Shown here piece after piece: positions 48,501 to 63,204 of a DNA stretch of 64,000 nucleotides; within the stretch, counting starts at the first letter, position 1; each line of letters starts with the position of its first letter. The notes under the pieces were generated by a model. The model was not told the origin of the DNA. It ran no database searches and worked only from the letters and a program-made list of their open reading frames with translations. Both the position numbers and the translations under genes were made by a program. The stretch lies in IMG/VR virus record IMGVR_UViG_3300020153_000001, positions 1-64,000 of that record, one strand, 5' to 3'. This DNA is from a virus.

Positions 48501-48543
48501 AGTTATTGATAGCGTTATTGAGTCTGTTGACATATGCGGACAT
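45541..48543 (-). CDS. 1000-aa multi-domain hypothetical protein (putative inner-head/ejected)
   Basis: Helical domains joined by Q/P-rich linkers; FTKQAQ; isolated HEARH; SD from palindrome copy 10. Confidence 0.85.
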   Translation of the reverse strand: MSAYVNRLNNAINNLSNCPRPLIKESTDAGDIHKYYKIIVPPVKRDEIKPILDYFNPESSFFQRTAAAALLRVSGINPGAFPEDFVAQARDLIRKHPEIYSGNNLPPEFVDKFLGIVSRYYPHHPQLQPLADKIGEQLASRLGIQPPPYSRFNEIYRKLSTTPLPSPEATAANFFAKQIKESRQVDSGTWYYFLRSYLKGAAKQGRLDEACKVIFGGEFSDNVRQTYLRRLNSKLASIATALLPFTKQAQESVNDAWIELNLPEITLRELIAKAKAANVPDDAINFMVSHFIKQKYVESVDDKVPFKAIIDIINFLRGLDRYDGILKLAELINEKQPVDLNMTVGKLADELRISMEELSDVLPQDEYGKLLYTLEPYLALLQSLPKDQKASLGHVLVGQLLARPHVNQYVDKADASKLSKRAPNLSIAPGFTQDGVQEARTRRTDRRPEADQQPEADQQQQQQQAAREPAQNIPPHIKVLQQPPPKGLSPGVYKDEKTGRTFAVFPDGRVVTVQKTIDERLEESAQKHKEATSYYNQVMKNRDYKDYTRVIDTVYGKVSEDALKIADQWSDSYNWRRLGYDTFWDKADVIGIASRHFAKQDENGNQYVDGHSVRNAIGLIRLLQIQSSLGHEARHGPKGRASVENLVAQLKSIYSPEEWDKIKEAYNQITNRGTKVLDDYDIMLHGRSAAYPGASKDVDELFPGGNFGHEHDWWRKAWEERQKRTPLPFRDRSRDRQYAGENRVPIDPGIAERRRVREFLRGQRESLDDEFTVAQTRPTRPPASQSDTTQPDYGPPVYLLPENPTRQDLANYSAYIIRKQFATVGRGRFTPEFVDVVSKIVRDYQLGKIEYRDVVYALLASGTGGNMDYIHRVAGAILSGDVRNIPGKLSEGYYQMYSSLKRLSEGHKPPAPFDENVQSLPAPGRRSIYSAGGSQPPLVATQEVPPLVRTLSSRSSGVPPTRTAPQVNPPGQNIAQSGKRNDSFGTASVPLAGIETDLIA

Positions 48544-48544
48544 T

Positions 48545-48564
48545 TTTTGACTCCGGAGTCAAAA
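48545..48564. repeat. Palindrome copy 10 (perfect); holds the beta'-C TGA stop and the next gene's GGAG
   Basis: Read directly. Confidence 0.95.
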
Positions 48565-50412
48565 TTGCCTGGCCTGTTCGACAACACCCTTAGCCCATTG
48601 CTGAAGGGGTATACCTATTGCTTTAGCAGGAACAAAGCTTGTGCCGTAAATATCAGCCATAGAACCCTGTCTTACCGCCGATAGCAGCGCGCGTACCTGG
48701 TTCGAGCCAAACAGTCTGGTCATCCAGTTAGGATCAAATTCAAGCGTAGAAGCCGCACGGACCATGTATGGTTCAAACGGCGGCGGCTCGCTATGAACAA
48801 CGATGTCTTTTATACCAGCTTCCCTTAGCTCTTTAACGACAGACTGTTTGATCTTCGTACCTATGGTATAGTGCAACACGGGAACCTCTAAGTAATAGCC
48901 TATAGCGCTATCGACGGGCACCCTCATACTACCACGACGGGGCTTCCATCGCTTTACTATTTCGCCATACGGCACAATTTCGTCTAAATAAAACCCCCCA
49001 AACGGCTGGGTTATAACAACATGGTCGATAAGCCCACGTGCTAACAGCTCGACGTTTCGTCTATGTACCGGCTGACCAGCATCTCGCATGGCGTCGCAAA
49101 ACATCTTAACAAACGCGCGTCGACCTTCGCCTATTCCTTTTTGTCTCACTACCTCGGCAGGGTTAGGTAGCCCCTCCGTAATCATGTCACCGGCTTCTAC
49201 AGTATCGCCTTCTTTCACTATAGGAGGATGGCTAGGCGGCGAAAGATGCTCCACGTCGCCAACAACGATTTTCCATTGGCCGATCTCGTTTCTTGTGATG
49301 GACCGAACTTTACCATCAACCTGACTGTGTATTGCCCCGCCCACAAACGTCTTTGGGACGTTTAGCATCTGTTCGAGTACCTTAAAACCACTAAACTTCG
49401 TCACACCGCCCGTGTGCTTTGAGCTTATAGATGTTTGCGTTATTCGCTCTCCTATGGCCTGCGCCGCGGAAAGACCAGGTATGCTACCGATTTCAGGAAG
49501 TCGACCGTGTTCGCGTATACCAGCATCGACAGCATAGACGCCGTCAACTGCCGGGCTAGCAATAGGACTACGAACAACGATCTTTTTAATGCCGTCTTTC
49601 TTGAGGTCTTCGTATACCGCCGGAGTAATCTCTGTACCGGCTGGCCATCTTCCTGCAGGAAGGGCTAAGAATGCGCCGATATTGTCGGGGTCGTCTGCAT
49701 TTACCGGCAACCCTAACGGGTAAGGTAGCTTAGCCTTATGATCATGGCCTATGACAACTAATCTATGAGCCGCTCTGTTTAGAAGTTTTGAAAGATAACC
49801 GCTTCTGGCGACGCCCAGCTTAGAATCTGCTAGTCCCTTTCTTGCTCCGTAGCAAGCAGCCCAGAACTCTGCTGTCGGTACACCAGCTGAATAGCTAGAA
49901 AGGACAGGGAATGGTACAACTTCGCCAGCCCTGTCGAAATACGCCGTATCGCCCATAATAAGCCGCTTAAGCATTGCAGGATTGCCTCTGGCGCCGGAAT
50001 AGACGTGTTCATAGAATCGGTTATTCCGCGCCTTGGCCTCATCCATCGTCAATTGAAGCAGCGTTTGCGAATGGGCAAATATAGCTTCAGATATCTTTTT
50101 GCGCTTCTCGTCGTCTGGCAGATCGCTTCCCGCAATACGCTCAATATCTTTTAAGATGGCTGGACGGTAGGAATAAGAAGATGGGAGGGGCTTTAAGTCT
50201 TCAAGGGAAAAAGATGCGCCGTCGCTGGCTAGTAGCGCCTGGACCGCGAGCTGGTTAAGCCGCCTTGTAATTTGCCCGTACTTATCAGGATACTTCTTAG
50301 CAAGTTCGGCGTAGAAGCTATTTACAGACTTCTTCGTGAACTCCTCGGGCAGACTAAGGTCAGAAGGGAGAACTTCCGAGAGTAAAAGGCGGCCTACCGT
50401 AACCTGATTCAT
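48559..50412 (-). CDS. rpoC: RNA polymerase beta' subunit, C-terminal half
   Basis: TVGRLLL, SGARG, bridge helix GARKGLAD..SGYL, trigger loop AAQAIGERITQ..HTGG, VHRRNVELLARG. Confidence 0.93.
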   Translation of the reverse strand: MNQVTVGRLLLSEVLPSDLSLPEEFTKKSVNSFYAELAKKYPDKYGQITRRLNQLAVQALLASDGASFSLEDLKPLPSSYSYRPAILKDIERIAGSDLPDDEKRKKISEAIFAHSQTLLQLTMDEAKARNNRFYEHVYSGARGNPAMLKRLIMGDTAYFDRAGEVVPFPVLSSYSAGVPTAEFWAACYGARKGLADSKLGVARSGYLSKLLNRAAHRLVVIGHDHKAKLPYPLGLPVNADDPDNIGAFLALPAGRWPAGTEITPAVYEDLKKDGIKKIVVRSPIASPAVDGVYAVDAGIREHGRLPEIGSIPGLSAAQAIGERITQTSISSKHTGGVTKFSGFKVLEQMLNVPKTFVGGAIHSQVDGKVRSITRNEIGQWKIVVGDVEHLSPPSHPPIVKEGDTVEAGDMITEGLPNPAEVVRQKGIGEGRRAFVKMFCDAMRDAGQPVHRRNVELLARGLIDHVVITQPFGGFYLDEIVPYGEIVKRWKPRRGSMRVPVDSAIGYYLEVPVLHYTIGTKIKQSVVKELREAGIKDIVVHSEPPPFEPYMVRAASTLEFDPNWMTRLFGSNQVRALLSAVRQGSMADIYGTSFVPAKAIGIPLQQWAKGVVEQARQF

Positions 50413-50674
50413 GGTATCGAGCTAAGTCCTGATCCGATGGTTGTGCGGGAACAGACAACTGTGGCATAAACGGCTTGGCATCGATAACTTGCGTAGGAGC
50501 GCGTTCGGCTGGATAACCTGTCATTGACAGTACTTTTGGGAAATCAGCGCTTACGCAAGTATCGAATACAAGCACGTTTCCATTATCAAATCCTGCAGCC
50601 ACAGCGTTGCCGAATGTATCTAGTACGACAAACTTCTTACACTCTAACTCTTTATCGTCTATGATAATTTTCAT
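50360..50674 (-). CDS. Small hypothetical protein
   Basis: 104 aa; overlaps the beta'-C start by 53 nt. Confidence 0.55.
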   Translation of the reverse strand: MKIIIDDKELECKKFVVLDTFGNAVAAGFDNGNVLVFDTCVSADFPKVLSMTGYPAERAPTQVIDAKPFMPQLSVPAQPSDQDLARYHESGYGRPPFTLGSSPF

Positions 50675-50721
50675 TGTGCTACACCAACTGTAAGTTTAAT
50701 TTGAAATGGCCGACGTTACGG

Positions 50722-50886
50722 CTATATCTTTGGAGCTTTAGTAGGTTTAACGTACTTTGGCATTACGGCACGCGCGGTACGCGCTGGCTGATTTGTCTTC
50801 TTCGCCTCTGATTCGGCACGACGAAGAAGATGCTTCAACGACAAAACGGGCCGTAGCGAGAAAAACTGTCTCTTTTTTCTAGCCAT
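50722..50886 (-). CDS. 54-aa basic ORF below the track threshold
   Basis: MARKKRQFFSLRPVLSLKHLLRRAESEAKKTNQPARTARAVMPKYVKPTKAPKI, preceded by AGGGTG. Confidence 0.4.
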   Translation of the reverse strand: MARKKRQFFSLRPVLSLKHLLRRAESEAKKTNQPARTARAVMPKYVKPTKAPKI

Positions 50887-50904
50887 AGTTAAAGTCACCC
50901 TATT

Positions 50905-51678
50905 TTATGGCTGTATGCCGAATAGTGCGTGTGGTAACATCCAACCATACGTTGTTGGACTGCGCAGGATCATTTCGAGTTGTTGGTTATTAGCGGACAG
51001 CGCACTTGTAATAGCAGCCCTTGCAGTTTGCGCGTCCGCTAGCATGCGCTGCGCATCCTTACTACTCTTATTAGGTGTCGCCTGATATGCTATCCTGCTC
51101 GCTAAGTACGTGTTCAGTCTATCGTTTATCTTATTGCGGTCCGCGGGGTCGGATAGAGTCAAATGAGATAAAACCTTAACGGTCCGCGCAAACATCGCAT
51201 CGTCTAATGCGGTGTAGAATACGTTGAGCTCGTTGACGGTTTTATTCGACCGGAGTGCGCTACGAAGCAATTTCAAGTCGCCGTCTTGTATCGCTTCGTA
51301 GGTTTTCATATATAGCTCTGTCTCGTCACCATGACCTATCACATCCTTGAGCGAGCTGATGCCAGACGAGGCGGGCGGCTGCCTTGTAAGCCACGCTAGC
51401 TGACTAAACTCCTCAAGCTCTTTAAGCCCCTTAAGCTCATCAGCAGGTTCTGTCGGTTTCGAGTAGTTTAATAGAGAATATAAACCACCGCCCGCGGCAC
51501 CCAAAAGCCCGCCAAGCAAAGTCTTGCTTCTTTGGCCTGGAAACAGTAAATCAAGCAGGGCGCCTATCGCTAGACCGGCCCCACCGCCCAATAGGGCGGG
51601 CTTTGCAAATCTAGCTAACTCCTCCCAATCAAGGGCAAGCTTTGTAAAACTGTCGTTTGCAAAATCGTAGATTAGCAT
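50905..51678 (-). CDS. Membrane-segment protein
   Basis: FTKLAL followed by two Gly-rich hydrophobic helices; AAGGAGG SD. Confidence 0.8.
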   Translation of the reverse strand: MLIYDFANDSFTKLALDWEELARFAKPALLGGGAGLAIGALLDLLFPGQRSKTLLGGLLGAAGGGLYSLLNYSKPTEPADELKGLKELEEFSQLAWLTRQPPASSGISSLKDVIGHGDETELYMKTYEAIQDGDLKLLRSALRSNKTVNELNVFYTALDDAMFARTVKVLSHLTLSDPADRNKINDRLNTYLASRIAYQATPNKSSKDAQRMLADAQTARAAITSALSANNQQLEMILRSPTTYGWMLPHALFGIQP

Positions 51679-51706
51679 ACCTTATCTGCCTCCTTATATA
51701 TGCATT

Positions 51707-52081
51707 CTATTTAGTAAACCATTTCTGTTGTATTGCTTTATACCAGTTCGCAAAGTTGACCTTTTCCCTCAACCCCGGCGACATCGCAGTTAACGCAAGA
51801 CCGCCTAACGCAAGAAGTATCGGCACAAACGGCTCTTTCGACACAAAAGAGCCAAGTACCGCCAATATAGTTGGCAATGTACCATAACCAGCGAGCTCGG
51901 TAGGCAACTGGCGTCGTAATTCCTGTTCCGCTGCAGCTCGTTGTTTGCTTACGTAATCACCAATTAAGTTGGTTAGCTCATCTGCTTTATCTTGTGGAAG
52001 TATACCAGCCAGCGTCTGGCGTATTTTACCAAGAGTATCTTGCTGTGCCTGTGCTTGCTTTGATAGTAGCCTTATGGACAT
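51707..52081 (-). CDS. Small membrane protein
   Basis: LSKQAQ; two C-terminal hydrophobic segments; GGAGG SD. Confidence 0.75.
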   Translation of the reverse strand: MSIRLLSKQAQAQQDTLGKIRQTLAGILPQDKADELTNLIGDYVSKQRAAAEQELRRQLPTELAGYGTLPTILAVLGSFVSKEPFVPILLALGGLALTAMSPGLREKVNFANWYKAIQQKWFTK

Positions 52082-52083
52082 GT

Positions 52084-52803
52084 CTATCCTCCGAATATCG
52101 ATTTCTTAATATCCGGCGGTATAGATGCCGTATTTTCGTTGGGCTGCGCCGTCTCAGGTGGCGGCGATAGTGCCGGAGTAGTTTGTTCTTTTTCCTTAGG
52201 CGACTGCCGTACTTCTTCCTTTTCTGTCAAGTATACCTCTTCGTCAGACAACGCGTCTGACGGTATTTTCAAATTCAGCGCGTCGTAGATGCCTACTAGC
52301 AGCTTCCTGACTTTTACGAGTTCTGTATAAAGCGTAGTCGGTGTAACTTCTGCTTTTTGCACCTTGGGTGTCTCTTCACGCTCTAGCTCTTCTTTTGGCT
52401 TGCCTTCCGGTTTTTCCTCGGGTTTGCCCTCAGGCGGAGGTTCAGGCGGAGGAGGAGGCATAGCACCGAGTAAACCCATTAACGAGCCAAGGTCACCAGC
52501 GCCGGCAATCGGCATTGGTCCACCCGGCCCGGGAGGCATCGCGCCAGGCGGACCGCCCATAGGAGGCCCACCCATAGGAGGCCCACCCATTGGTGGGGCG
52601 CCTGGAGGACCACCAGGAGGAGCCATGCCAGCCATATCCATTGGCGGCATGCCACCTGTAGGTGGGGGCATCATACCAGCAGCTGGATCCTGCCCCGCTT
52701 TGACCGGAGTAAAGCCGCGTTTTTCCATATCCTTCTGCAAGGCGTTCGATAAGTACATCGCAATGATTGATCTAGCGAGATCGTCGACGTTATATGTCGC
52801 CAT
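52084..52803 (-). CDS. Pro/Gly/Met-rich low-complexity protein
   Basis: GGPPM repeats followed by an acidic segment; AGGGAG SD. Confidence 0.75.
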   Translation of the reverse strand: MATYNVDDLARSIIAMYLSNALQKDMEKRGFTPVKAGQDPAAGMMPPPTGGMPPMDMAGMAPPGGPPGAPPMGGPPMGGPPMGGPPGAMPPGPGGPMPIAGAGDLGSLMGLLGAMPPPPPEPPPEGKPEEKPEGKPKEELEREETPKVQKAEVTPTTLYTELVKVRKLLVGIYDALNLKIPSDALSDEEVYLTEKEEVRQSPKEKEQTTPALSPPPETAQPNENTASIPPDIKKSIFGG

Positions 52804-52814
52804 CTTTGTCTCCC

Positions 52815-53096
52815 TTATAGCTTTATGACTACACGTCGCTTGCCTTCCTGGTCGATTTCGCCGTTGTCGCTTAAGTATGCTGTATGTTCTTTTTCGGCTT
52901 CTTCGTCCTCTTCGCTGCTTCCAAACCAGTTTTTATACGCATACCAACCAAGCAAAGACAGTCCGGCTAGGCTAAGTACTACAGGCCAAAACGCAGAATA
53001 AGAAACTGTCGACGTGGTCGATGGCCCGGCGCTATTTGTCGCGGCGTTTGCTGTTGCACTAGCGGCCTGGCCGAGCTTTACGGCTTTATTTTTCAC
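52815..53096 (-). CDS. Small single-pass membrane protein
   Basis: AFWPVVLSLAGLSLLGWYAY; AAGGAGG SD. Confidence 0.7.
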   Translation of the reverse strand: MKNKAVKLGQAASATANAATNSAGPSTTSTVSYSAFWPVVLSLAGLSLLGWYAYKNWFGSSEEDEEAEKEHTAYLSDNGEIDQEGKRRVVIKL

Positions 53097-53128
53097 TAGA
53101 CGCCTCCTTTACCGATTTCTTATTATAT

Positions 53129-53137
53129 ATTGTACCA
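53129..53137 (-). promoter_or_regulatory. Extended -10 element TGGTACAAT
   Basis: Intergenic, 33 nt upstream of the 53096 start. Confidence 0.5.
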
Positions 53138-53234
53138 GATAAAAGTCTTATGTTGGACAATCCGGTCTAATATATTTAGCCAGACGCTAATCTCCTCGGA
53201 ATCATTTGTAAGTAAAACGGGACGATCAATTTTC

Positions 53235-54866
53235 CTAAGGCTGGTATTTAAAAAAGCCTTTTGTCAAAATATCAATTATCGGCGTTGTATATGTTTTACT
53301 AAACTCGCTTTCAGGGATAGGCGGCTTATATCCATATCTCATTCGACGTATATTAATATACCCGTCGCCAAGTCTGCTGCGGCTGGGTCCGATTGTACGA
53401 AAATATGGAATTACGTCTTCTACAACCCAGTCAATCGGGGTCTTGACTACATCTGAACCGCCTGGCAGCAGCCCCGCGCGCTTAGCCGACTGAACAAGTG
53501 GATGGTCGTCAAGACCTTTTACATATCCAATGAAAGCTATACTAAACGCATCAGCCGCAATCTCGCTTACAGTCCTTTGTAGGGAGTTCTCGATAGGAAG
53601 CGGGTAATTCATACTATGCCCAAACTCGTGGGCGAATACAGGCAGCTTATCCGATGTTTCAATGGTGTGCGTGCGAGGGCGATAAGCGCCTAGTAATTCC
53701 GGTGGCGGTGATTTTACCGATAGTCCGGGAAACCTAGTACCGAACTTGTTGTATAGATGATTTAAAACTTCTCCTACTCTACTCCATTCTTCAGTTTTCA
53801 ATTGCACCCGGCGATCTACTATTGCTGACGCCGCTTCGACTTCGCCAAGTATCAACTCAAGTTCATCTAAGTCACTTTGCAAAATTGTAGACATATTTTC
53901 TGGCTTGACCGCCGTTGGGCTCTGTGCAATGCCGAGGCGCTCGCTAAGCCTCCTGAGTGGGCCGGGCAGTTTTGGTGTTCTGCTAATTTCTGGATACGTA
54001 TAAAGCTCAGCTACAACTGGGCGTTTTGAAGGAAACAAAGTACGAAGATGGGACATTTGGCTGTCGCCTGTAATGAGCCCCTTTACTACCTGCTGTGCTT
54101 GCTCTCGACCGAATCTTTTCGTGAGAAACTGTTTCAAACTGTCTATAGATTCGCCACCATGAACCACTCCAACAGCCAACGAAACGCGCGCCGGATCTGC
54201 GAGTATTCTTTTTACAGCAATCTGCCTCTCTGACGGATCAATATCGAACATATTTACAAAAGACTCAACAGCAGAACGCACTTCATCCGAAGTCATCTGG
54301 CTGATGACAGGAGCATATTTGTCGTGGAAGCTGCTTAGGAGATGCTGTGCGGCCACGTCCGCGACGCCAGGATAGAGCCTCATTGTCAAATCCATTACTA
54401 GCCTGTCTCTTAGCGTCGCGTCAAACCGCTGCCCACCAACTATAGACCTTACCTCTTCAGGATAAGATATTAGAATCGCAGACAAATAGCGCCCAGCTAG
54501 ATCATTTTTGGTCTTATCGTCAATGCTCGCCAGATAGGCGTTAAAATCGGGCTTATCCGATGAAAATATATGTTGCTGTACCGGCTTTGCCAGCAGCGAT
54601 CTGGCAAAGAATTCAAAATCAGGTCTGAAGCTAATTGCCGAACGGCCCAACAACGCGTGGTACGATCTGTCTAGCGGCGCTATTCCAATAGCTCGATTAA
54701 GAGCTGCTGCTAGGGGGTGCCCGAGAACGTCCGGAGTAGTCTTTACTTCAATAGGCTCAAACTCGCTATAACGCCCCGTTGCTGCAGAGTATGTCTTCTC
54801 AAGCGCGCGCTCTCCGGATAAAAGTTTCCTTAAGTATGTATATACGTTCGATACCGCGGCTGGCAT
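53235..54866 (-). CDS. HExxH metallopeptidase-like protein, paralogue of 54985-56703
   Basis: AHEFGH and SEIAADAF; shares LYPGVAD and DDHPLVxxAKRAGLLPGG with its neighbour. Confidence 0.85.
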   Translation of the reverse strand: MPAAVSNVYTYLRKLLSGERALEKTYSAATGRYSEFEPIEVKTTPDVLGHPLAAALNRAIGIAPLDRSYHALLGRSAISFRPDFEFFARSLLAKPVQQHIFSSDKPDFNAYLASIDDKTKNDLAGRYLSAILISYPEEVRSIVGGQRFDATLRDRLVMDLTMRLYPGVADVAAQHLLSSFHDKYAPVISQMTSDEVRSAVESFVNMFDIDPSERQIAVKRILADPARVSLAVGVVHGGESIDSLKQFLTKRFGREQAQQVVKGLITGDSQMSHLRTLFPSKRPVVAELYTYPEISRTPKLPGPLRRLSERLGIAQSPTAVKPENMSTILQSDLDELELILGEVEAASAIVDRRVQLKTEEWSRVGEVLNHLYNKFGTRFPGLSVKSPPPELLGAYRPRTHTIETSDKLPVFAHEFGHSMNYPLPIENSLQRTVSEIAADAFSIAFIGYVKGLDDHPLVQSAKRAGLLPGGSDVVKTPIDWVVEDVIPYFRTIGPSRSRLGDGYINIRRMRYGYKPPIPESEFSKTYTTPIIDILTKGFFKYQP

Positions 54867-54883
54867 GGATTATTAATGGCAAC

Positions 54884-54903
54884 TTTTGACTCCGGAGTCA
54901 AAA
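54884..54903. repeat. Palindrome copy 11 (perfect)
   Basis: 17 nt upstream of the ATG at 54866. Confidence 0.95.
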
Positions 54904-54984
54904 TTCTTGTTGGCTTATGGCCTAAAATCCGAAGTGTCACCAACGACATCATCACTTACTCATTTAGTTTGTGCTTTTTCTTAT

Positions 54985-56703
54985 CTATTCGCGATTATCG
55001 TTTTTAATAGTCGAGTGGGCTCGTTCCAAATCGTCGACGTTCGGCGCAAGCGGTCTGGCAAGGTCGCGCATTAACGGGCTTAGGAAGTTATCCGACCCTA
55101 TTACGCGGCCGAGCGAAGAGCGTCCAAGCTTCCTATACACAGAGATACTGACATCACCTAAAGCGCTTCGACTGGGGCCTGCGCGTTCTACATAAGGTAT
55201 GACGTCCTTTATCACCCAGTCAAAAAGGCCTGTTGTTTGTTTTGCCCCGCCCGGAAGCAAACCAGCGCGCTTGGCTAATATAACAAGCGGATGATCGTCC
55301 TTACCATACACGTATGCCGTTGCTGCTATCGAAAAGGCGTTAGCGATGATCTCCCCGACTAGATTCGTATAGTAATCGTTTTCTAGCGGACTACCCTCAA
55401 ACGAATAGGTCAGGCCGTGGGCGAGCTCGTGGAAAAACGTAGATAATTTTCTATCCATCATCAGCTTTCGTTCCCGCGGCAGGTAAAGACCTGCCGCGTC
55501 GGGCGTAGGCTCCTCCGGCGAAATCCCTGGCAGAGTTCCACCGAATCTTTCATATAAGTGTTTGACGACCTCTTCGGCTCGCGCCAGCTCTTTGTCCGAC
55601 AACGTTTTATCTTCAATCGCTACACCAATAAGTCCTAATGTCCCTGCTAGCTCTCCGTGAACTAGCTCAAGCCTTCCTACTTCTCTAACTCCATCCCTCA
55701 AATCTTCTAAATCTTTTATTGATACATCGAGAAACCATATTAGATTTTCTCTGGAAGGCTCTGTTATCGGTCTGCCGTATTGCGGTCTTATTCTCGTTTG
55801 TGGTAACGCAAGAATTTCCGTGACAAGTCCGCGACCTTCTCTAGGTGTCGAATAAAGCGGCCTGACGCGCTCACTTGCTCTGCCAGCGGTAAGCCCGCGC
55901 ATGATGGACTTGATCTGCTCATCATCTACTTTGCCAGCTAGGAAATCCTTTAACTGATCAATAGAGTAGCCTCCGCTTGCTACCACTGCTGCTAGGGTAG
56001 TTCGTCTTGGGCTTAGTAGTATCTGCGATATGGCTTTTTCCCTATCCTTGCCGCTAATACCAAACATGTCAACATACTTTTCGGCAAGCAAGCGTTTATC
56101 CGCCGGGCTCATTTGATTAACGATAGGGCCGAATATTCTGTAATATTCGTCTGCCAACTGGTCGGCGGCGATGTCAGCTACACCAGGATAAAGATGAAAG
56201 ATAAGCTTTAAGAACAAGGTATCTCTTAGCGCGTCGTTAAATGGTAATCTTCCTATTATTTCCCGCTCTTTTTCTGGCGTACGCGCGAACAGGTGGCTTA
56301 GGAAACGACCGGCCAAACTGGCACGTACGTTAGGGTCAACGCTCGCTAAGAATTTAGAAAAATCTGGATTTTCGGAAAGAAGATACCTTCTGACAGGCTC
56401 GTCTAGGGCTTGTACAGCCTCTCGTCTGAACTTATCGTTGAACGTAAGGATTGATTTACGTTTTAGTTCTTCGTAAGTAGGCGTTAGCGCTTGTATTCCA
56501 GTAACTCTTGTTGTAGCGGCCTCTAACGGCGTAAGGTACGACGGCAAATACGTGGGTAATATAGCATTAGCTGCAGAATATTCCTTGGGACGGCCAGTTA
56601 GGGCAGAATAAGTAGAAGCCGGACCGGTAGGTTCCGGCTTACCTGACAGTAGTTGCTTCAGCTGGTTATAGACATAGCCTATAGGACCACCGTTACCATT
56701 CAT
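54985..56703 (-). CDS. HExxH metallopeptidase-like protein, paralogue of 53235-54866
   Basis: FHELAH and GEIIANAF; AAGGAGG SD. Confidence 0.85.
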   Translation of the reverse strand: MNGNGGPIGYVYNQLKQLLSGKPEPTGPASTYSALTGRPKEYSAANAILPTYLPSYLTPLEAATTRVTGIQALTPTYEELKRKSILTFNDKFRREAVQALDEPVRRYLLSENPDFSKFLASVDPNVRASLAGRFLSHLFARTPEKEREIIGRLPFNDALRDTLFLKLIFHLYPGVADIAADQLADEYYRIFGPIVNQMSPADKRLLAEKYVDMFGISGKDREKAISQILLSPRRTTLAAVVASGGYSIDQLKDFLAGKVDDEQIKSIMRGLTAGRASERVRPLYSTPREGRGLVTEILALPQTRIRPQYGRPITEPSRENLIWFLDVSIKDLEDLRDGVREVGRLELVHGELAGTLGLIGVAIEDKTLSDKELARAEEVVKHLYERFGGTLPGISPEEPTPDAAGLYLPRERKLMMDRKLSTFFHELAHGLTYSFEGSPLENDYYTNLVGEIIANAFSIAATAYVYGKDDHPLVILAKRAGLLPGGAKQTTGLFDWVIKDVIPYVERAGPSRSALGDVSISVYRKLGRSSLGRVIGSDNFLSPLMRDLARPLAPNVDDLERAHSTIKNDNRE

Positions 56704-56739
56704 CGGGAAAACCTCCTTTTTGTTAAAGATAGGTAACTA

Positions 56740-57816
56740 CTATTTTGACTCCGGAGTCAAAGATTTTTGGGCCCTGCTACCTAAAGCCCGAATTATGGGG
56801 TCAAGCAGTCTTCCTAATCCGCCTCGCGGCCTATCGTTTCCGAATTTATCCATAAACTCCTTCACCTTCTTATAAGTGTTCGCTCTTTCCGGATACCAAC
56901 TTATCCAATGCTGCGCCAACCATCTATCCGGAATAGTGCCGCTATATCCCAGTACGGCTAGAGACGGCGGAACAAATTTCTTAGAAATCGGGAAATCCGG
57001 TACGGCTTCTTTTAAGGCCTTCCATTCTGGCCAATCTGGTTCCGGCAGCCAACCGGCGCTTACTGCCATCACGACAGGCCATGTCAGCTTATTGTTATAG
57101 TAGTCGAGAACTGCGGCGGCAAACGTGTTTGCGCCAATTTCATTTATAGTACGCCATATCGTTACCATCGAAGCCAGCCTTGGGTCTCTTACCATAACAT
57201 AAGGCTGATCTTCGTCACCCTGCAGACCAAAGTAGTCAAAAATACTTTTAGCCATGAGCGTATCCAACGAGTGTCCTAACTCGTGGGCGATAACGGCTGT
57301 TCCTTTAGGCGTTGCCATGACATCTGGATCGATGATCAGCTTACCTGTGAGTGCGTTAAATCCACCCAACAAGGAGGGCTGTCTACCGACTTCGGCTGAT
57401 GTGATATATGGCATGGCTCGAAGTGCGGCATAATCTAGAATCTGCTTAACCTTTGCCGTATCAACCAACCTTCCGCCGCTTGTAGCTGCATTGAGCGCTT
57501 GCCACAAACGCTCCTCGGATTCGGTTTGCGCCCTACCTATCGGGGAGGAAAAAAATGCCGGTGCAGAAGAACTAGCGTCTTCGGGCATAATACTATGTAG
57601 TTTGGCAACCATTTTTGTTACCGGACCGCGCAACTCCTGTTCTTCCTGATAACGAATGTCTTTTATAGTAGGACCATATTCCGACCATTGATACAGACTA
57701 TTTAATAGGTCAACATTATGTGCCCGTTGTTCGTGGTGATGTGTAACGGGGGGTTCTTTGCTTTGGGCGTTTTTTAGCAGGTTTTGTAGATCATTAACGG
57801 CTCGTTTGCAGATCAT
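56740..57816 (-). CDS. ImmA/IrrE (M78)-like metallopeptidase-domain protein
   Basis: IAHELGH and NEIGANTFAAAVL; ends in LTPESK*, encoded by the palindrome. Confidence 0.8.
   Translation of the reverse strand: MICKRAVNDLQNLLKNAQSKEPPVTHHHEQRAHNVDLLNSLYQWSEYGPTIKDIRYQEEQELRGPVTKMVAKLHSIMPEDASSSAPAFFSSPIGRAQTESEERLWQALNAATSGGRLVDTAKVKQILDYAALRAMPYITSAEVGRQPSLLGGFNALTGKLIIDPDVMATPKGTAVIAHELGHSLDTLMAKSIFDYFGLQGDEDQPYVMVRDPRLASMVTIWRTINEIGANTFAAAVLDYYNNKLTWPVVMAVSAGWLPEPDWPEWKALKEAVPDFPISKKFVPPSLAVLGYSGTIPDRWLAQHWISWYPERANTYKKVKEFMDKFGNDRPRGGLGRLLDPIIRALGSRAQKSLTPESK
56743..56762. repeat. Palindrome copy 12 (19/20 match)
   Basis: TTTTGACTCCGGAGTCAAAG. Confidence 0.93.
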
Positions 57817-57832
57817 CTTTCTAGGTCCTAAG

Positions 57833-60800
57833 TTATTTCTCGATTATCTTTATTGGCTGGTCTATAGCAATTTCTCCTCTAGCAAACGCGGCAAGCGCGT
57901 CTTTTTTCGTTTTAAATATTTTTACTGGTTTACGGCTATCGACGCGACTAGCATACCATAGGCCGATGAGATAGTCTTGTTGGGGGGTATAAACAGGCTC
58001 TGCAAATATGGCTGCTTTGAATAGATTCTTCGACGGTAGCAATTTATCGTAGGCTTCCTTGACGGCGTCGTCGGATGCGGGTACATGGAATTGCATCGTA
58101 TCGCCGTCGAAGTCAGCGCCAAAGGCCTGTGTAATAAGAGGGCTTATCTCTATGGTTTTACCCGGTATAAGAACGGGTCGAAACGCCATAATTCCGTACT
58201 TGTGAAGCACGGGCGCGCGGTTTACTACAACAGGCCGCTCTTGGATAACACGTTCCAAAGACTGCTTAGCATAGGGATGGCGCTCATTAACAAGCATATT
58301 CGCCACTAGAAACGGCGAAGCACGTAACGCTGGCGGAACGTTACGAAGCACGCTATCAGGAAGGCCGCGATGCATTAGGTCGCGAATAATAAACGGCTTA
58401 TACGCGACCCAAGCCGCCTCCTCGGGAATACCTATCTCGTCAATATCTAAAGAACTGTTCGGCGTAATGACTGCCCTACCAGCCAGCGTGGCACTAATAC
58501 CAAGCATTTTTCTCTGCATTATGCTGGCTTTCGGGCTGGAACCAACCACGGTAGCCAGCAAACCCTTAATACCCTGCTTCTTCAGGGCGTAGCTATGTGG
58601 ATCGTCTAGGCCTGTAAGCCCGTAAAAGATGGACATGAGCGATCTTCGCTCTTCCCGTAGATCGCTAATATCCGAGGCCAGTTCTTTATAAGCGCCGATG
58701 AAGTCGATGAGCTCTTTATAAAGATAGTTCGCATCATTAACGACAAGCGTGCCGTCTTTAATCATCGAGATAGGTCGAAAGATGGGCGGAATGACTGGAA
58801 CTTTGGTCCAAAATAGCTCGGACGGGTGGATACTAAAGCGTTTGAGGCCTTCAAGGTAGTTTAGCTTTTTGATAAGCGACGACCGTTTCGATGGCGTAGC
58901 AGTTTGGAGTTCTTCCCTGGTACGCGTTATTTCTCTATCGACGTCATAGTTTTTAAATAGTTCATAAAGCGCCATCGGACCGGATATAGGCCCTTTTGAT
59001 TGACGATACCGTTCAGGTATGGGAAGCTCGCCAGCAAATATGCTAATGAGGTCCTTCTCGCTTACGCCAATCAATCTACCAAGCAGTTCCACCATGATTG
59101 GGTTTGGAACCGGCTCTGGTAGCTTGATGGCGCTCCACCGCGTGCCAGCTAGACCTCCGGTAAGACCGTCGTCAAACAGCCCACCCTCTACCGTTCGGAA
59201 ACCGTCGCTATAGACACGAACTGTCTCGGAGTTCTGAACATATCGGTTACCCGCTAGTTGATCTATATCTTTATCTCGAAGCGCAAGAAGCCGTATACCA
59301 GAACGTTCTTGGATGGGGTTAATCCCTGCCCCTCTAAGCAAGGCGACAAATTTGTGCCATATATGCGGGATCTTGGGCTGCGGTAGGCTGTGGCCAGTCA
59401 TAAATTGTCGCCATGCCTCATCGTTCGCTTGTCCGCGGATAAGTGCGGCATCGGTTATTGTGTTGTACGCGCCGTGCGCCAACAGCGCGTTAAGCTCAAG
59501 GATCCCCAACCGTTTGGCTTTTCCCGATTCACCAACAGTGGGGATATCTTCTGCGCTTGCAGCAATAGCCTCGTCTACGGCCTGAAGCTTATCTTCTGCA
59601 ATATGGCACAGGCGCAGAATATATCCATAGCCTGTAAGCGCGCGTATTTTTCTACCCGTAACGGGATCTGTGAGCACTTCTGTATCGCTAACACCATGCT
59701 TCTTTAGCACGTCAGAAACGTATTGATGCAGCCTGTCGGCGTGTTCAAAATCCTTTACATAGATTGGCTTTCCTATCTTCTTAGCAACCTTCCCTAGAAG
59801 TGCTTCATATATTTGACCAATATTAGCCCGCGAAATAATAAACGGCGACGCGATGATATCGACAGGCTTGCCATCTTCGCCTATGGGCATCTGGCTATCG
59901 GGTTTAATGATAACGACGCCTTTATTTCCATATAGCCCCGCAATCTTATCTCCTTGTTGGGTCTCGAATATCGACTTTACGATAGCAACAATGCCCTCTT
60001 TTGTCTTACCAGCCGCTATTACTATCCCAGGCGCGTCATAGTCCCACGTAACGCTGTCATCAACAAACATCTTGTGGGAAGCTCTAGCGGTGGTGATAGG
60101 AAGCATCTTGGCACTAAGAATAATCGGCTCGCCCTTACGGAGAACCGTTCCTGGCCGCGCCACGCCCTCGTTAGTATACTTCTCTAAGTCCTCAGCGGTC
60201 ATTTTGCCAGGAAATAGCGACACGTAAGCCTGTTTTCCGCTAGGCTCTGCTGTTTGGTGCTGATAGACAAAAAGATTCTCGGCAGACAGTTTGCGCGCAA
60301 ATGACTGTGAGATAACGAAAGCGTCTTCGTATGTATCGCCGGTAGCCATATAGGCAATCTTTGCGTTTGTTCCCACCGCAAGATTGCCGTTTATATCGGT
60401 AAAATTGCTATAAGCCAAAAGCTGGCCAGGCTTTACGACATCGCCAGGCTTTACAAGCGGCTCGTTATATAAAGCCGTCTGCCTGGCATAAGGCGTATTG
60501 TTGTGCAACCAGATCTTCTTTGTGCTTCGGCTGTCAGCGTCATAAAGCTCGATAAAATCGGGAGTTACTTTGCGTACGACCCCCTTATATGGGCTATAAA
60601 CGGCACCAGCGTATTTTCCAAATATTGATACAAACGGTCTTCCACGGCTATCAACCGATTGCACTAAAGGCGCTTCTCTGTTTATGATGGGCAATGCTTG
60701 CGTAATAAATCGGCTTCCCATCGCCACGCGCTGCGGGAAGCAGGCGCTTTTCATGGGGATAAGTGACGCAAGCGGACCAAAGATATGCGTTGCATCCTTG

Positions 60801-62191
60801 ATGTAATGCGTTATTTTTTCCCTTGGTACGAAGAGCTCGTAGCCTTTTGATATTGCACGAACGTAACGACGACCGCTTTCTAGCTCGCCAGGGAACGCTA
60901 TCGTAACGTCCTCTACTTGATCCGATCTTAGCCAAGTCTCCTTATTTGTCTTTGCGTCGATGACTGGAATATAAAGAAGGCCGTCCGATCCTCGTCTTGC
61001 CGAGATTGTCATCCTTGTTTCTACCCCTACTTTGAGGGATTCTGGGGTAGTAACAGGGTCGATAAATCCTAGCTGCGTAGCATGGACGTCCCTGGCAGAA
61101 GATGGGATGGCCTCTACGGCGCCTATACCACCCTCCCCCATTCGTGTAAGACGGAAGGCGTGGTCAAGGATTTCGACGGGGTTGATCTCGGCTGGCGCCA
61201 TCACAAGCCCAGAAGCGCGAATTACATGATCAACGATAGGCTGGGCTGGTCTTGGCGGTATGATCTCTTTTTTGGGATTACGCATGGCCTTCCAGAGGAT
61301 ATTTCTTAAAATGAGGCGCATCTTTGCAGGGACGTTTTCGGCAAAGATATCCTCTGGACCAAGGAACTGCTGGTTGGCCAAAGAGTCTCTATCGTCTTCT
61401 CTGGCCTTGCCTTGGAGAAGCTGGATCATCTTGGCTGTAGCTGCTAGCGCCGCGCGTTTGTCGACATAGTTCTGCATTAGCCCTAAGTTGCGGCGCATCA
61501 CGTCCTGCGCTACAGGAACTTGCAAGAACTCGCGCGCAAGATCTACATCCGTAGAGCCAAACATTCTTTTGGCAAAACGCCGCGCATCTTCTACTTTCTC
61601 TGTTACATTGCGTGCCAGAAGATCAGCACCCCATGCTTGCCTTAGCTCTTCATCAGTTACTCCGATAGCTCTTAGAATAGGATAAAGCCGAAACTTCGCC
61701 TGTCCTGCTTGTATGTAGAATATGCCTGTCGTAGGGTCGAGTACGTAACGATGGGTTTTGCCGGCTGGGAGGTTGATGAAAGCCTCCGGCTCCCCTGTCT
61801 GACGGAACCGGACGTAGACGCCAGGTTTTAGCCGTTGTTGGTTCGTAATGGAATACTCAACGCCGCCTATAACAAAGACGCCTCGGTCGGTAAGATAGGG
61901 AACTTTGGCAAGAAGTGTGCGTTTCTCGATAACGCCTGATGGCGTTGTTATTCGTATCGTTCCATAAAGATCCCGCGCCAGTGTGCTGTTTGTGATAATG
62001 GCGCGCTTGTGATTAATAGGGCTTAAGATTTCTTCTTCTGGTTCCTTGTCTTTATATTCCACGTCTTTTAGCTCGATAGTCCAGTTACCCTGGCTATAAG
62101 AAGGCGTGGAAATAAAAGAATTACGGACAGCGTCGAAGATACGCTGCCGTATCGTCTTAACATCGGCAATATCGATAAGCTCGCCAGTCAT
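57833..62191 (-). CDS. rpoBC: RNA polymerase beta subunit fused to the N-terminal half of beta'
   Basis: Beta motifs: RDVHATQLG..TPES, GDKIAGLYGNKG, SRANIGQIYE, RLGILELNAL. Junction near 59305. Beta' motifs: PVIPPIFRP, GRAVI, NRAPVLH, GADFDGD (58100-58120). Confidence 0.95.
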   Translation of the reverse strand: MTGELIDIADVKTIRQRIFDAVRNSFISTPSYSQGNWTIELKDVEYKDKEPEEEILSPINHKRAIITNSTLARDLYGTIRITTPSGVIEKRTLLAKVPYLTDRGVFVIGGVEYSITNQQRLKPGVYVRFRQTGEPEAFINLPAGKTHRYVLDPTTGIFYIQAGQAKFRLYPILRAIGVTDEELRQAWGADLLARNVTEKVEDARRFAKRMFGSTDVDLAREFLQVPVAQDVMRRNLGLMQNYVDKRAALAATAKMIQLLQGKAREDDRDSLANQQFLGPEDIFAENVPAKMRLILRNILWKAMRNPKKEIIPPRPAQPIVDHVIRASGLVMAPAEINPVEILDHAFRLTRMGEGGIGAVEAIPSSARDVHATQLGFIDPVTTPESLKVGVETRMTISARRGSDGLLYIPVIDAKTNKETWLRSDQVEDVTIAFPGELESGRRYVRAISKGYELFVPREKITHYIKDATHIFGPLASLIPMKSACFPQRVAMGSRFITQALPIINREAPLVQSVDSRGRPFVSIFGKYAGAVYSPYKGVVRKVTPDFIELYDADSRSTKKIWLHNNTPYARQTALYNEPLVKPGDVVKPGQLLAYSNFTDINGNLAVGTNAKIAYMATGDTYEDAFVISQSFARKLSAENLFVYQHQTAEPSGKQAYVSLFPGKMTAEDLEKYTNEGVARPGTVLRKGEPIILSAKMLPITTARASHKMFVDDSVTWDYDAPGIVIAAGKTKEGIVAIVKSIFETQQGDKIAGLYGNKGVVIIKPDSQMPIGEDGKPVDIIASPFIISRANIGQIYEALLGKVAKKIGKPIYVKDFEHADRLHQYVSDVLKKHGVSDTEVLTDPVTGRKIRALTGYGYILRLCHIAEDKLQAVDEAIAASAEDIPTVGESGKAKRLGILELNALLAHGAYNTITDAALIRGQANDEAWRQFMTGHSLPQPKIPHIWHKFVALLRGAGINPIQERSGIRLLALRDKDIDQLAGNRYVQNSETVRVYSDGFRTVEGGLFDDGLTGGLAGTRWSAIKLPEPVPNPIMVELLGRLIGVSEKDLISIFAGELPIPERYRQSKGPISGPMALYELFKNYDVDREITRTREELQTATPSKRSSLIKKLNYLEGLKRFSIHPSELFWTKVPVIPPIFRPISMIKDGTLVVNDANYLYKELIDFIGAYKELASDISDLREERRSLMSIFYGLTGLDDPHSYALKKQGIKGLLATVVGSSPKASIMQRKMLGISATLAGRAVITPNSSLDIDEIGIPEEAAWVAYKPFIIRDLMHRGLPDSVLRNVPPALRASPFLVANMLVNERHPYAKQSLERVIQERPVVVNRAPVLHKYGIMAFRPVLIPGKTIEISPLITQAFGADFDGDTMQFHVPASDDAVKEAYDKLLPSKNLFKAAIFAEPVYTPQQDYLIGLWYASRVDSRKPVKIFKTKKDALAAFARGEIAIDQPIKIIEK

Positions 62192-62194
62192 TGT

Positions 62195-63172
62195 TTAAGA
62201 GAGGAAGTGAATCGTACGCTTTTCGTTGGTGCGTTTTGGACCTTCTTTAGCAAGCCCGTAAGGTATGGCGGGACGACCTGCGCTTTGCTCGACGGTCTTA
62301 TGCTGGAAGATCTGCTGGAATTCGTCAGGATCGATCTCAACAGGGTAAGGGGAACCAGACAGAATACTAAGCGCTTTCCCTACAGCAGCTTGCTCTGGGT
62401 CAGGAGAATGCGGGCTGGCTTGCTCGAAGGCACGATATGTTAAAAGGGCCGCAACGACTCCTAAACCATATAGCCCATAGACAAACGCCGGCGGGACGGC
62501 CGATATAATCTGCCATAATACGCCTGAAGAAGCCGTCTTTGTAAGCGTTACTCCCACTTCTGGCTTTGCGGGACTATCGTCCGTGCTCACTGCGGAGTCA
62601 AACGGCTCTGGCATCTTAGCCTTAATTAGCCGTTTCAACGACGCAAGCATCCTCTTCTTGGCCGCCGCTACGTCTTCTGAGACCTCTGCTGTAAGCTTTG
62701 AATTTGTAATAAGATCGCCTATCTTTCCTCCTACCCACGACCCAAGCCACACTAAGAGTCCCGTCATCGTAAAGCCTGCAACATGCCTTAGCGATTGTAT
62801 GGGCATATAGCCAGAAACATACTCAATACCTTCCGCAGTAAGCGCAACGGGAAGGGGAAGGGTAACGGACTGTTGAGCCTGCTTAACTTCTTTAACCACA
62901 CCTATCCACTCTTCCTTAGGGATGCCGCCATAAAAACGCTGCTGACGAACCTTCTCTATCGCAGACCGCACGGAATCGCGTAGCTTGTGGAGGCTAAATA
63001 CACTTCCTATCGCCGATATCGCCATTGAGCCTAGCAAGGCATACCACATGATTTCCGCGGCAGTAACGCTTTCGGGGGATAGGGCAGACATTGTTTGGGC
63101 GTTCTTAACGAATCTCTTGTCAATATAGTCAAAGAAATCTTCAAGGTCGCGTCGGGTGATCGTAACACTCAC
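62195..63172 (-). CDS. Membrane-segment protein with three K-x-A-delimited hydrophobic units
   Basis: Probable GTG start at 63172 (frame open to 63262); VKNAQ, VKQAQ and TKTAS each precede a hydrophobic helix. Confidence 0.7.
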   Translation of the reverse strand: MSVTITRRDLEDFFDYIDKRFVKNAQTMSALSPESVTAAEIMWYALLGSMAISAIGSVFSLHKLRDSVRSAIEKVRQQRFYGGIPKEEWIGVVKEVKQAQQSVTLPLPVALTAEGIEYVSGYMPIQSLRHVAGFTMTGLLVWLGSWVGGKIGDLITNSKLTAEVSEDVAAAKKRMLASLKRLIKAKMPEPFDSAVSTDDSPAKPEVGVTLTKTASSGVLWQIISAVPPAFVYGLYGLGVVAALLTYRAFEQASPHSPDPEQAAVGKALSILSGSPYPVEIDPDEFQQIFQHKTVEQSAGRPAIPYGLAKEGPKRTNEKRTIHFLS

Positions 63173-63184
63173 GAAACCGCTCTT

Positions 63185-63204
63185 TTTTGACTCCGGAGTC
63201 AAAA
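63185..63204. repeat. Palindrome copy 13 (perfect)
   Basis: 2 nt after the TAA of 63207-63608. Confidence 0.95.

Follow-up and report, generated by a model that had tools for sequence, protein, structure and literature searches.

The stretch of DNA analysed here (the window) comprises the first 64 kb of a 135,539-bp virus record in IMG/VR, IMGVR_UViG_3300020153_000001, for which CheckV gives a completeness of 94% and in which no terminal repeats were found. Nearly all genes of this genome lie on the minus strand. Two of them, 7,420 bases apart, encode parts of a cellular-type multisubunit RNA polymerase (RNAP): a large chain, P0001, in which beta is joined to the N-terminal half of beta', and a small chain, P0002, which holds the C-terminal half of beta' (Table 1). 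They constitute the only RNAP set in the genome.

P0001 carries domains of both large subunits on a single chain. Pfam identifies Rpb2_3 (3.5e-8) and Rpb2_6 (1.1e-38), followed by Rpb1_1 and Rpb1_2 (7.1e-26). A profile was built from 60 homologues and aligned to Escherichia coli beta and beta', whose residue numbering is used as reference for both chains; in this alignment P0001 covers beta 96–1337 (of 1342) and beta' 160–550. Among PDB chains, bacterial beta matches residues ~237–958 (E 4e-52), and bacterial beta' and cyanobacterial gamma match residues ~1070–1450. Judged from these alignments the beta module is a complete RNAP beta, from which insertions SI1 and SI2 of E. coli are absent and in which the flap tip is shortened, with an 8-residue gap at the position of the E. 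coli flap-tip helix.

The beta module and the beta' part are joined by a short linker. An alignment of 12 sequences across this junction shows conserved flanks, and between them a short and variable linker. By eye, the sequence which follows from position 59296 on (IRLLALRDKDID...GGLFD..LTGG) corresponds to the beta' N-terminus (E. coli IKIALASPDMI...DGLFCARIFGP). An AlphaFold2 model of P0001 residues 860–1160, made from the 12-row alignment, had a mean predicted local distance difference test score of 71 and was confident past the linker. In a Foldseek search with this model the part after the linker best matched the N-termini of cyanobacterial gamma and bacterial beta' (E 1e-10), suggesting that the junction folds like a beta' N-terminus.

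The beta' module of P0001, which ends near E. coli beta' residue 552, has clamp helices and the double-psi barrel of beta'. The zinc ribbon, ~37 residues long in bacteria, is cut to about five, with GGLAGTRW in its place. Since P0001 and P0002 have only two cysteines each, both beta' zinc sites, of four cysteines each, are gone. The catalytic Mg-binding loop reads GADFDGD, the bacterial form being NADFDGD. Position 1 of this loop is Asn in all bacterial and mReC phage polymerases sampled and in 22 of 23 single-chain forms (see below), and Gly in half of the sequences of the split clade (13/26), where it is mostly G, S, A or T. The bacterial Asn makes contact with the ribose of the incoming nucleotide, and its replacement thus suggests that sugar selectivity may differ.

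P0002 is assigned to Rpb1_5 by Pfam (4.3e-16), and its residues 4–498 align with residues 661–1176 of an actinobacterial beta', the PDB beta' chains matching at E 5e-30. The bridge helix and the trigger loop are both found on this chain. With P0001 ending at ~552 and P0002 starting at ~569 of E. coli beta', merely a loop is absent between the two. Most homologues of P0002 are longer (1000–1700 amino acids, median 1170), as the polymerase part of ~610 amino acids is followed by a C-terminal extension of 400–1100 amino acids in which no Pfam domain is found; P0002 is without this extension. An open reading frame (ORF) of 1000 amino acids (45541–48543), of unrecognised family, begins 15 nt past the P0002 stop. 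No similarity between this ORF and the extensions was detected by BLASTP or phmmer.

A first-pass annotation, made from the letters of the window, had described the two ORFs and their spacing of about 7.4 kb, and both exist as it stated. It had placed the junction at ~59305, within the linker as now mapped, both catalytic barrels on one chain and the mobile catalytic elements on the other, and the alignments bear this out. Its placement of the split directly before TTxGR agrees with the profile alignment. The annotation had also put the cyanobacterial split slightly later. Alignments to gamma and beta' chains agree with this, placing the window cut some 10–50 residues earlier, an approximate figure obtained through indirect alignments: the end of P0001 falls at about residue ~560 of the 624 of gamma, and P0002 residue 46 corresponds to RpoC2 residue 36. 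The first 65 residues of P0002 gave no match to PDB chains that was useful for placing the cyanobacterial cut.

Table 1. Features of the polymerase locus and of related positions in the same genome. Positions are those of the window unless marked as genome coordinates; residues refer to the chain named.
Feature	Position	Strand	Detail	Basis
Large-chain gene P0001	57833..62191	-	1452 amino acids	ORF and translation, Pfam, profile alignment
Beta module of P0001	59315..62191	-	residues 1–959	profile alignment, four blocks, ending at E. coli beta 1337
Active-site lysine motif of beta double-psi barrel, GDKIAGLYGNKG	59918..59953	-	GDK..GNKG, residues 747–758	aligned to E. coli GDKMAGRHGNKG
C-terminal end of beta, RGAGINP	59315–59335	-		translation
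Linker IQERSG	59297..59314	-	six residues, from beta C-end to beta' N-end IRLLAL..	12-sequence junction alignment
Beta' N-terminal module of P0001	57833..59296	-	residues 966–1452, ends ..IAIDQPIKIIEK	profile and junction alignment
Catalytic Mg-binding loop GADFDGD	58100..58120	-	P0001 residues 1358–1364	translation; bacterial form NADFDGD
Small-chain gene P0002	48559..50412	-	617 amino acids	ORF and translation, Pfam Rpb1_5
Small-chain start MNQVTVGRLLL	50380..50412	-	corresponds to TTxGR segment (E. coli beta' 572–576)	profile alignment, homologue starts
Bridge helix YGARKGLADSKLGVARSGYLSKLL	49780..49851	-	P0002 residues 188–211	aligned to bacterial HGARKGLADTAL.TA.SGYLTRRL
Trigger loop AAQAIGERITQTSISSKHTGG	49405..49467	-	P0002 residues 316–336, without E. 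coli SI3 insertion	alignment to PDB beta' chains
Variable filler	50413..57832	-	nine same-strand ORFs of 58–572 amino acids in the 7.4 kb between the polymerase genes	
Palindrome TTTTGACTCCGGAGTCAAAA	48545..48564		perfect, 20 bp; overlaps P0002 stop codon, ends 2 nt before next ATG	
Sigma-like ORF	88383–89198 (genome)	-	271 amino acids; outside the window	Sigma70_r3 (1.8e-9), r4 (5.7e-10)
Portal gene	113031–114953 (genome)			

Conservation of the layout in metagenomes and phage isolates

The genome is known from a single metagenomic contig, and the fusion and the split could in principle be an assembly error, a frameshifted pseudogene or the product of a chimeric contig. Logan contigs of two sequencing runs span positions 48000–62600 unbroken, with 0 differences and at ~19.6x. 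One of the runs is a hot-spring and the other a sediment metagenome; they are nearly equal in size and are probably the source sample filed twice, so that this match represents a different assembler and a non-independent sample. The public runs listed for this genome included no RNA run. Compared with an 83%-identical relative, the proportion of nonsynonymous differences (pN) against that of synonymous differences (pS) is 0.11 vs 0.77 for P0001 and 0.13 vs 0.80 for P0002. At a pN/pS of about 0.15 and with saturated synonymous sites, these values indicate strong purifying selection on the two genes.

The search for homologues of P0001 gave 676 at E<1e-10, and in each of the best 120 of these, from JGI, ENA, Logan and NCBI and on contigs of up to 218 kb, Pfam domains of beta and of beta' occur together in a single chain. 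For P0002, 953 cluster representatives were found at E<1e-30; the best 150 of them all start M-x(0-5)-TT[VAIL]G, and none contains the beta'N part. The order of genes is conserved where the partner lies within the fetched flank: the fusion gene is followed by the beta'C gene and then by a gene similar to gp218 of Salmonella phage Arash. The fusion gene also occurs in contigs of metagenome-assembled genomes (MAGs) labelled as very different bacteria, which we read as probably mis-binned phage. Junction and split point are conserved residue for residue. The identical Logan assembly, the hundreds of contigs with the same layout, the phage isolates described below and the selection on both genes rule out an artefact, a pseudogene or a chimera, to which we give a negligible probability. 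The sites of fusion and split, for which the first-pass annotation had advised a check of read support, are thus no artefact.

Many homologues of the large and of the small chain (P0042, P0067, P0072, P0077, P0085 and others) are interrupted by inteins and LAGLIDADG domains (PF14528, PF14890). Those of the small-chain homologues lie near residues ~200–210 and ~328–341, the latter beside the trigger loop. In the Vibrio phages D148 and D181 the large-chain gene is interrupted by a homing-endonuclease gene. Another partition is seen at the end of a MAG contig (L034:5854-8967), where a beta homologue is encoded in two adjacent ORFs of 636 and 401 amino acids.

A tblastn search of deposited phages recovered the layout in four isolates, Salmonella phage Arash and the Vibrio phages D69, D148 and D181. 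Arash (OQ632216) encodes Gp206 of 1525 amino acids and Gp216 of 606 amino acids, and the three Vibrio phages encode chains of 1527 and 609 amino acids. P0001 matches Gp206 with 97% coverage in one piece (tblastn E 3e-169; profile score 1097), and in general the large chains of the Arash/D69 type cover 97–99% of P0001 in one piece at 28–30% identity. Their small chains, of ~606 amino acids, start at the same point as P0002, the TTxG segment. Furthermore, Arash shares with the window phage a homologous sigma and homologous neighbouring virion genes. Arash and D69 differ from the window phage in their low identity (~30%), in their placement on a separate branch within the fused clade, and in the distance between the two genes, which is 4.8 kb in Arash and 0.65 kb in D69 as compared to 7.4 kb.

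In the isolate records the chains are labelled 'beta', 'beta'' or hypothetical. The Arash paper likewise names the proteins beta and beta', and mentions neither fusion nor split (PMC10585845). No paper that describes the layout was found in the full-text literature open without subscription. The architecture is not rare. A large phage clade has it as its norm, cultured members included, and the finding is to that extent less singular than it seemed from the first-pass annotation.

Single-chain relatives and comparison with other polymerases

An alignment of unsplit beta' proteins was used to search IMG/VR and gave 80 loci. In 45 of these (within L067–L140) the polymerase is encoded by a single ORF of 2020–2500 amino acids, which matches the profile of the fused chain end to end (scores ~1000–1230, Arash-like) and the profile of the small chain 0–30 residues further on. 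By these profile matches, the ORFs are complete single-chain beta::beta' enzymes. One further single-chain form was found in a MAG contig (L032:2643-8729), and none among the cultured phages searched. They resemble the window enzyme in having the same beta-to-beta' junction, in the loss of the N-terminal zinc ribbon and in falling on the same side of the phylogenetic tree. They differ from it in that beta' is uncut, the parts being joined by 0–30 residues instead of separated by a stop and a new start, in that NADFDGD is kept, and in that many have about four cysteines in all, which may be the second zinc site.

A maximum-likelihood tree of 87 sequences and 1393 profile columns was inferred with IQ-TREE (quick search, LG+G4) and is unrooted; support is given as the Shimodaira–Hasegawa-like approximate likelihood ratio (SH-aLRT). 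Intein-bearing or truncated sequences (L019, L023, L025, L029–L031, L034, L040, L054, L057 and L058) were left out of the trees. Cobetia phage Carin-5, which aligned over 26% of columns only, was left out of a second tree; no relatives of its beta' were found in IMG/VR. With many rows of deviant composition and a short search, trust should be limited to splits that have strong support. One of these is a branch with SH-aLRT 100 that has all beta-fused enzymes, 26 split and 23 single-chain, on one side. On the other side are two clades, each with a support of 100, namely bacteria with 24 rows and mReC with 14. A single origin of the fusion is therefore apparent. The fused side is an unresolved fork of four groups: Arash with D69; L011 with L026 and L032; a clade of 22 split rows that includes the window; and a clade of 22 single-chain rows. 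When all split forms were constrained to one clade, the approximately unbiased (AU) test did not reject this (p-AU 0.52), and the constrained tree was slightly better. The cut may thus have arisen once. Since the bacterial beta' is unsplit, it would be more economical to assume that the ancestor was a single chain and that the cut came later, with the caveat that the tree is unrooted.

The first-pass annotation spoke of a cellular RNAP that had been re-cut. Fusion and split are both real, as seen above; a one-off re-cutting of a cellular operon did not hold up, because the nearest relatives are single-chain phage enzymes and the split is one state of a fused family.

The frequency of inteins in this family (homologues with LAGLIDADG and intein-splicing domains reach 2509 amino acids) and the existence of single-chain relatives raise the question of whether the two halves are re-joined by a split intein or by trans-splicing, such that the working enzyme would be a single chain. 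The end of P0001 and the start of P0002 coincide with the ends of the polymerase profile, which leaves no room for intein halves. Moreover, the genes may lie up to 48 kb apart, and in Arash the two chains were detected separately, Gp206 at 100% coverage and Gp216 at 89% (PMC10585845). Re-joining is for these reasons considered highly improbable, and an enzyme that works as two chains is preferred.

The mReC lineage, with which a comparison had been advised, proved to be different in both descent and layout. About a third of the 80 loci are mReC-type, with a beta' of ~900 amino acids followed by a beta of ~1000 amino acids, and two of them agree with contigs listed in the mReC paper in both metagenome id and length (3300017989, 149,482 bp; 3300005915, 152,423 bp). 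As in the window, the enzyme is phage-encoded, alignable to cellular enzymes and deep-branching. Unlike in the window, its genes are separate, beta' is unsplit and the zinc-ribbon cysteines are kept; none of the fused forms sampled has the N-terminal zinc ribbon, which is kept in the beta' of mReC-type loci, a Rhizobium phage and Carin-5. The mReC clade groups with bacteria in the unrooted tree, and the window enzyme lies outside. The mReC paper reports separate beta and unsplit beta' proteins only, and does not mention the fused layout (Weinheimer and Aylward 2020, PMC7481178). The mReC capsid is of the T4 Gp23 type; PF07068 was not matched in the window genome, but the control search matched nowhere either. 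In mReC-type loci (L061–L083 and similar) and in Carin-5 (L020), beta' precedes beta, which is the reverse of the bacterial rpoB-rpoC order. In Carin-5 a sigma gene is located directly upstream.

A cut in the same linker region, after the double-psi barrel, is known from gamma/RpoC1 and RpoC2 of cyanobacteria and plastids and from beta' of the phiKZ/AR9-type enzymes. In cyanobacteria beta is a separate chain, and by the approximate figure above their cut would lie further downstream than that of the window. In phiKZ/AR9-type enzymes beta itself is split, whereas that of the window is whole and fused. These phages have both subunits split, giving 4–5 chains, in two sets (virion and non-virion) and with no sigma homologue, and their beta' cut coincides with the cyanobacterial one (PMC7598289). 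The window phage differs in possessing one set only, together with a sigma homologue. The phiKZ-type enzymes are also far more diverged than the window enzyme, and none was among the tblastn hits of P0001 in deposited phages. Reviews of jumbo-phage polymerases cover the phiKZ type, and not the fused-and-split family (PMC7598289, PMC7824862).

In Helicobacter and Wolbachia, rpoB and rpoC are fused, with beta linked head-to-tail to the N-terminus of beta' by a short linker. That chain contains the whole of beta', and alpha, omega and the two zinc sites are all part of the working enzyme. In the window, by contrast, the chain stops after residue 1452 and the remainder of beta' is encoded 7.4 kb away. 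The one such layout that the literature describes is that of K2ORF6p and K2ORF7p of the yeast cytoplasmic linear plasmid pGKL2, where beta and part of beta' are fused and the C-terminal part of beta' is on a small chain, a fusion that was called unknown in any other RNAP (PMC6211774). The pGKL2 enzyme is much smaller and far diverged, and the eukaryotic element to which it belongs also has a capping enzyme. It is cut where archaeal A' and A'' are divided, which leaves the bridge helix on the large chain, whereas it is on the small chain in the window. The likeness between the two is one of layout.

Surroundings of the polymerase genes

The distance between the two polymerase genes varies widely among relatives (0.65, 0.9, 1.1, 1.7, 2.8, 3.6, 4.8, 5.1, 13.3 and 48 kb). 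In the closest relative, G001 (144 kb, with terminal repeats), the genes are 13.3 kb apart, and in G003, the contig of L011, the fusion gene lies at ~43.2–47.6 kb and the beta'C gene at 95.8–97.7 kb. Most ORFs of the filler are missing from the 83%-identical relative. By this and by the range of gaps, linkage is loose and genes turn over in the interval. The nine ORFs of the filler, the 1000-amino-acid ORF that abuts the P0002 gene and two upstream ORFs had no match above threshold in Pfam, PHROGs or PADLOC; the sole signal in the filler was a sub-threshold Gly-zipper (PF13441, E 0.002) on an ORF of 257 amino acids. Homologues of the Arash virion proteins gp218 and gp222 are encoded downstream of the P0002 gene.

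The palindrome TTTTGACTCCGGAGTCAAAA, which overlaps the P0002 stop codon, is present in 28 exact copies in the 135.5 kb. Further copies near the polymerase genes are located at 54884–54903, 56743–56762 and 63185–63204. Most copies overlap a stop codon or lie 0–8 nt past one, often just before the next start. The palindrome holds TTGACT on both strands, and no T-run follows it. Its copies bracket the unit containing P0001 and close the unit ending in P0002. They may mark transcript ends or processing sites, or may be the site of a regulator for the phage's own polymerase.

Beyond the window the genome encodes a reverse transcriptase (RVT_1, 7e-18; 98714–99679, minus strand). The regions at 64–84 kb and 104–135 kb encode three glycosyltransferases, two radical-SAM proteins, a family A DNA polymerase, a protein of the uracil-DNA glycosylase family, an ATP-dependent ligase with a LigD phosphoesterase domain, a GpA-type terminase and a SNF2-type helicase.

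A two-chain polymerase and its possible role in infection

On the sequence evidence, every catalytic element of a bacterial-type core is encoded by the two genes, which are conserved as a pair and under selection. We consider it probable, at roughly 80%, that they encode the catalytic core of a bacterial-type two-barrel RNAP of the phage's own, which would be sigma-dependent and delivered with the virion. Chain 1 consists of the whole of beta, the six-residue linker and beta' up to the end of the double-psi barrel domain, and so has both barrels, the clamp helices and the RNA-DNA hybrid cleft on one polypeptide. Chain 2 supplies the bridge helix, the trigger loop and the remaining beta'. The clade of the enzyme is large and made up of phages only, with beta covalently fused to beta'; on the branch of the window the fused chain has one cut, always in the loop before TTxGR.

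As chain 1 holds the two barrels with every metal and lysine ligand, it could alternatively act alone as a minimal two-barrel polymerase, like YonO or the virion enzymes of crAss and P23-45, with chain 2 having drifted to another role. Single-chain two-barrel enzymes without a trigger loop do exist (PMC7481178, PMC10770324), and chain 2 bears a long unrelated C-terminal extension in most relatives. Yet chain 2 has a conserved bridge helix and trigger loop, both subject to purifying selection. It also occurs in almost all genomes for which enough sequence was available, and both chains are co-abundant in Arash virions. That chain 1 works by itself is consequently very unlikely, and we retain the two-chain core.

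The first-pass annotation had proposed a search of the genome for alpha, omega and sigma. The alpha and omega profiles (PF01000, PF01193, PF01192) had no match at E<=1 in the 135.5-kb genome, whereas all 14 of 14 control genomes were matched. The covalent link of beta to beta' may replace the alpha dimer and omega as aids to assembly. A sigma-like ORF was found, which is homologous to Arash Gp10 (phmmer E 1.3e-11) and is followed downstream by a homologue of Arash gp13, in the same Gp10 ... Gp13 gene order. This putative sigma70-family protein would choose the promoters. Used as queries, the Arash gp196 sigma and the D69 sigma had no match in the genome. The predicted complex of the sigma-like ORF with P0001 residues 1085–1452 scored 0.30 (mark 0.32).

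Delivery with the virion is suggested by Arash. In its virions Gp206 gave the most spectra of any protein (3516), with 1210 for Gp216 and 467 for the sigma Gp10 (PMC10585845). By analogy, the two chains and sigma of the window phage may be packed in the virion, enter the cell with the DNA and transcribe independently of the host polymerase.

Several points weigh against the proposed enzyme or parts of it. The absence of alpha and omega is seen with sequence profiles only, and a diverged or unrelated assembly factor or subunits of the host could take their place. Pfam Sigma70_r2 was found neither in the sigma-like ORF nor elsewhere in the genome, and the sigma-like protein could equally serve the host polymerase. 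The flap tip is shortened and both zinc sites are missing, features which in bacteria take part in sigma and terminator functions. Packing in the virion is known only for a 30%-identical relative, Arash, whose authors note a possible carry-over of proteins that are abundant during infection (PMC10585845).

A different view concerns when the same two-chain polymerase acts: it would not be carried in the virion but made after infection for middle or late genes, with early genes transcribed by the host enzyme, perhaps redirected by the phage sigma. Many phages do encode sigma factors for the host core enzyme (PMC7824862), and the contamination allowed for in the Arash paper would fit such a view. 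Against it, the Arash chains and sigma are among the most abundant virion proteins, with 89–100% coverage (PMC10585845), and in the window genome the polymerase genes lie amid homologues of Arash gp218 and gp222, and the sigma gene beside that of gp13. Synthesis only after infection is therefore judged unlikely, though it carries real weight, and delivery with the virion is favoured.

A wider proposal is that the clade represents a third, so far undescribed, lineage of phage multisubunit RNAP beside the phiKZ type and mReC, in which the beta-beta' fusion permits a core free of alpha, omega and zinc that works with sigma and virion delivery, and in which the two-chain form was cut once from a single-chain ancestor. 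We put this forward tentatively, as a possibility at somewhat less than even odds.

Few machines of life are as conserved as multisubunit RNAPs, whose subunit boundaries hardly vary. The present clade shows a close relative of the bacterial enzyme that has been re-partitioned, apparently without alpha and omega and with neither zinc site, and that is under strong selection in hundreds of phages. It adds a further lineage to the debate on how often phages have acquired cellular-type polymerases. If the proposed reading is true, the family would offer a compact sigma-dependent polymerase of two genes, or of one, for biochemistry and structure, as well as a natural experiment in core assembly. 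Transcription by a polymerase delivered with the virion would also gain a new model, and one that can be grown in culture, with Arash on Salmonella and D69 on Vibrio.

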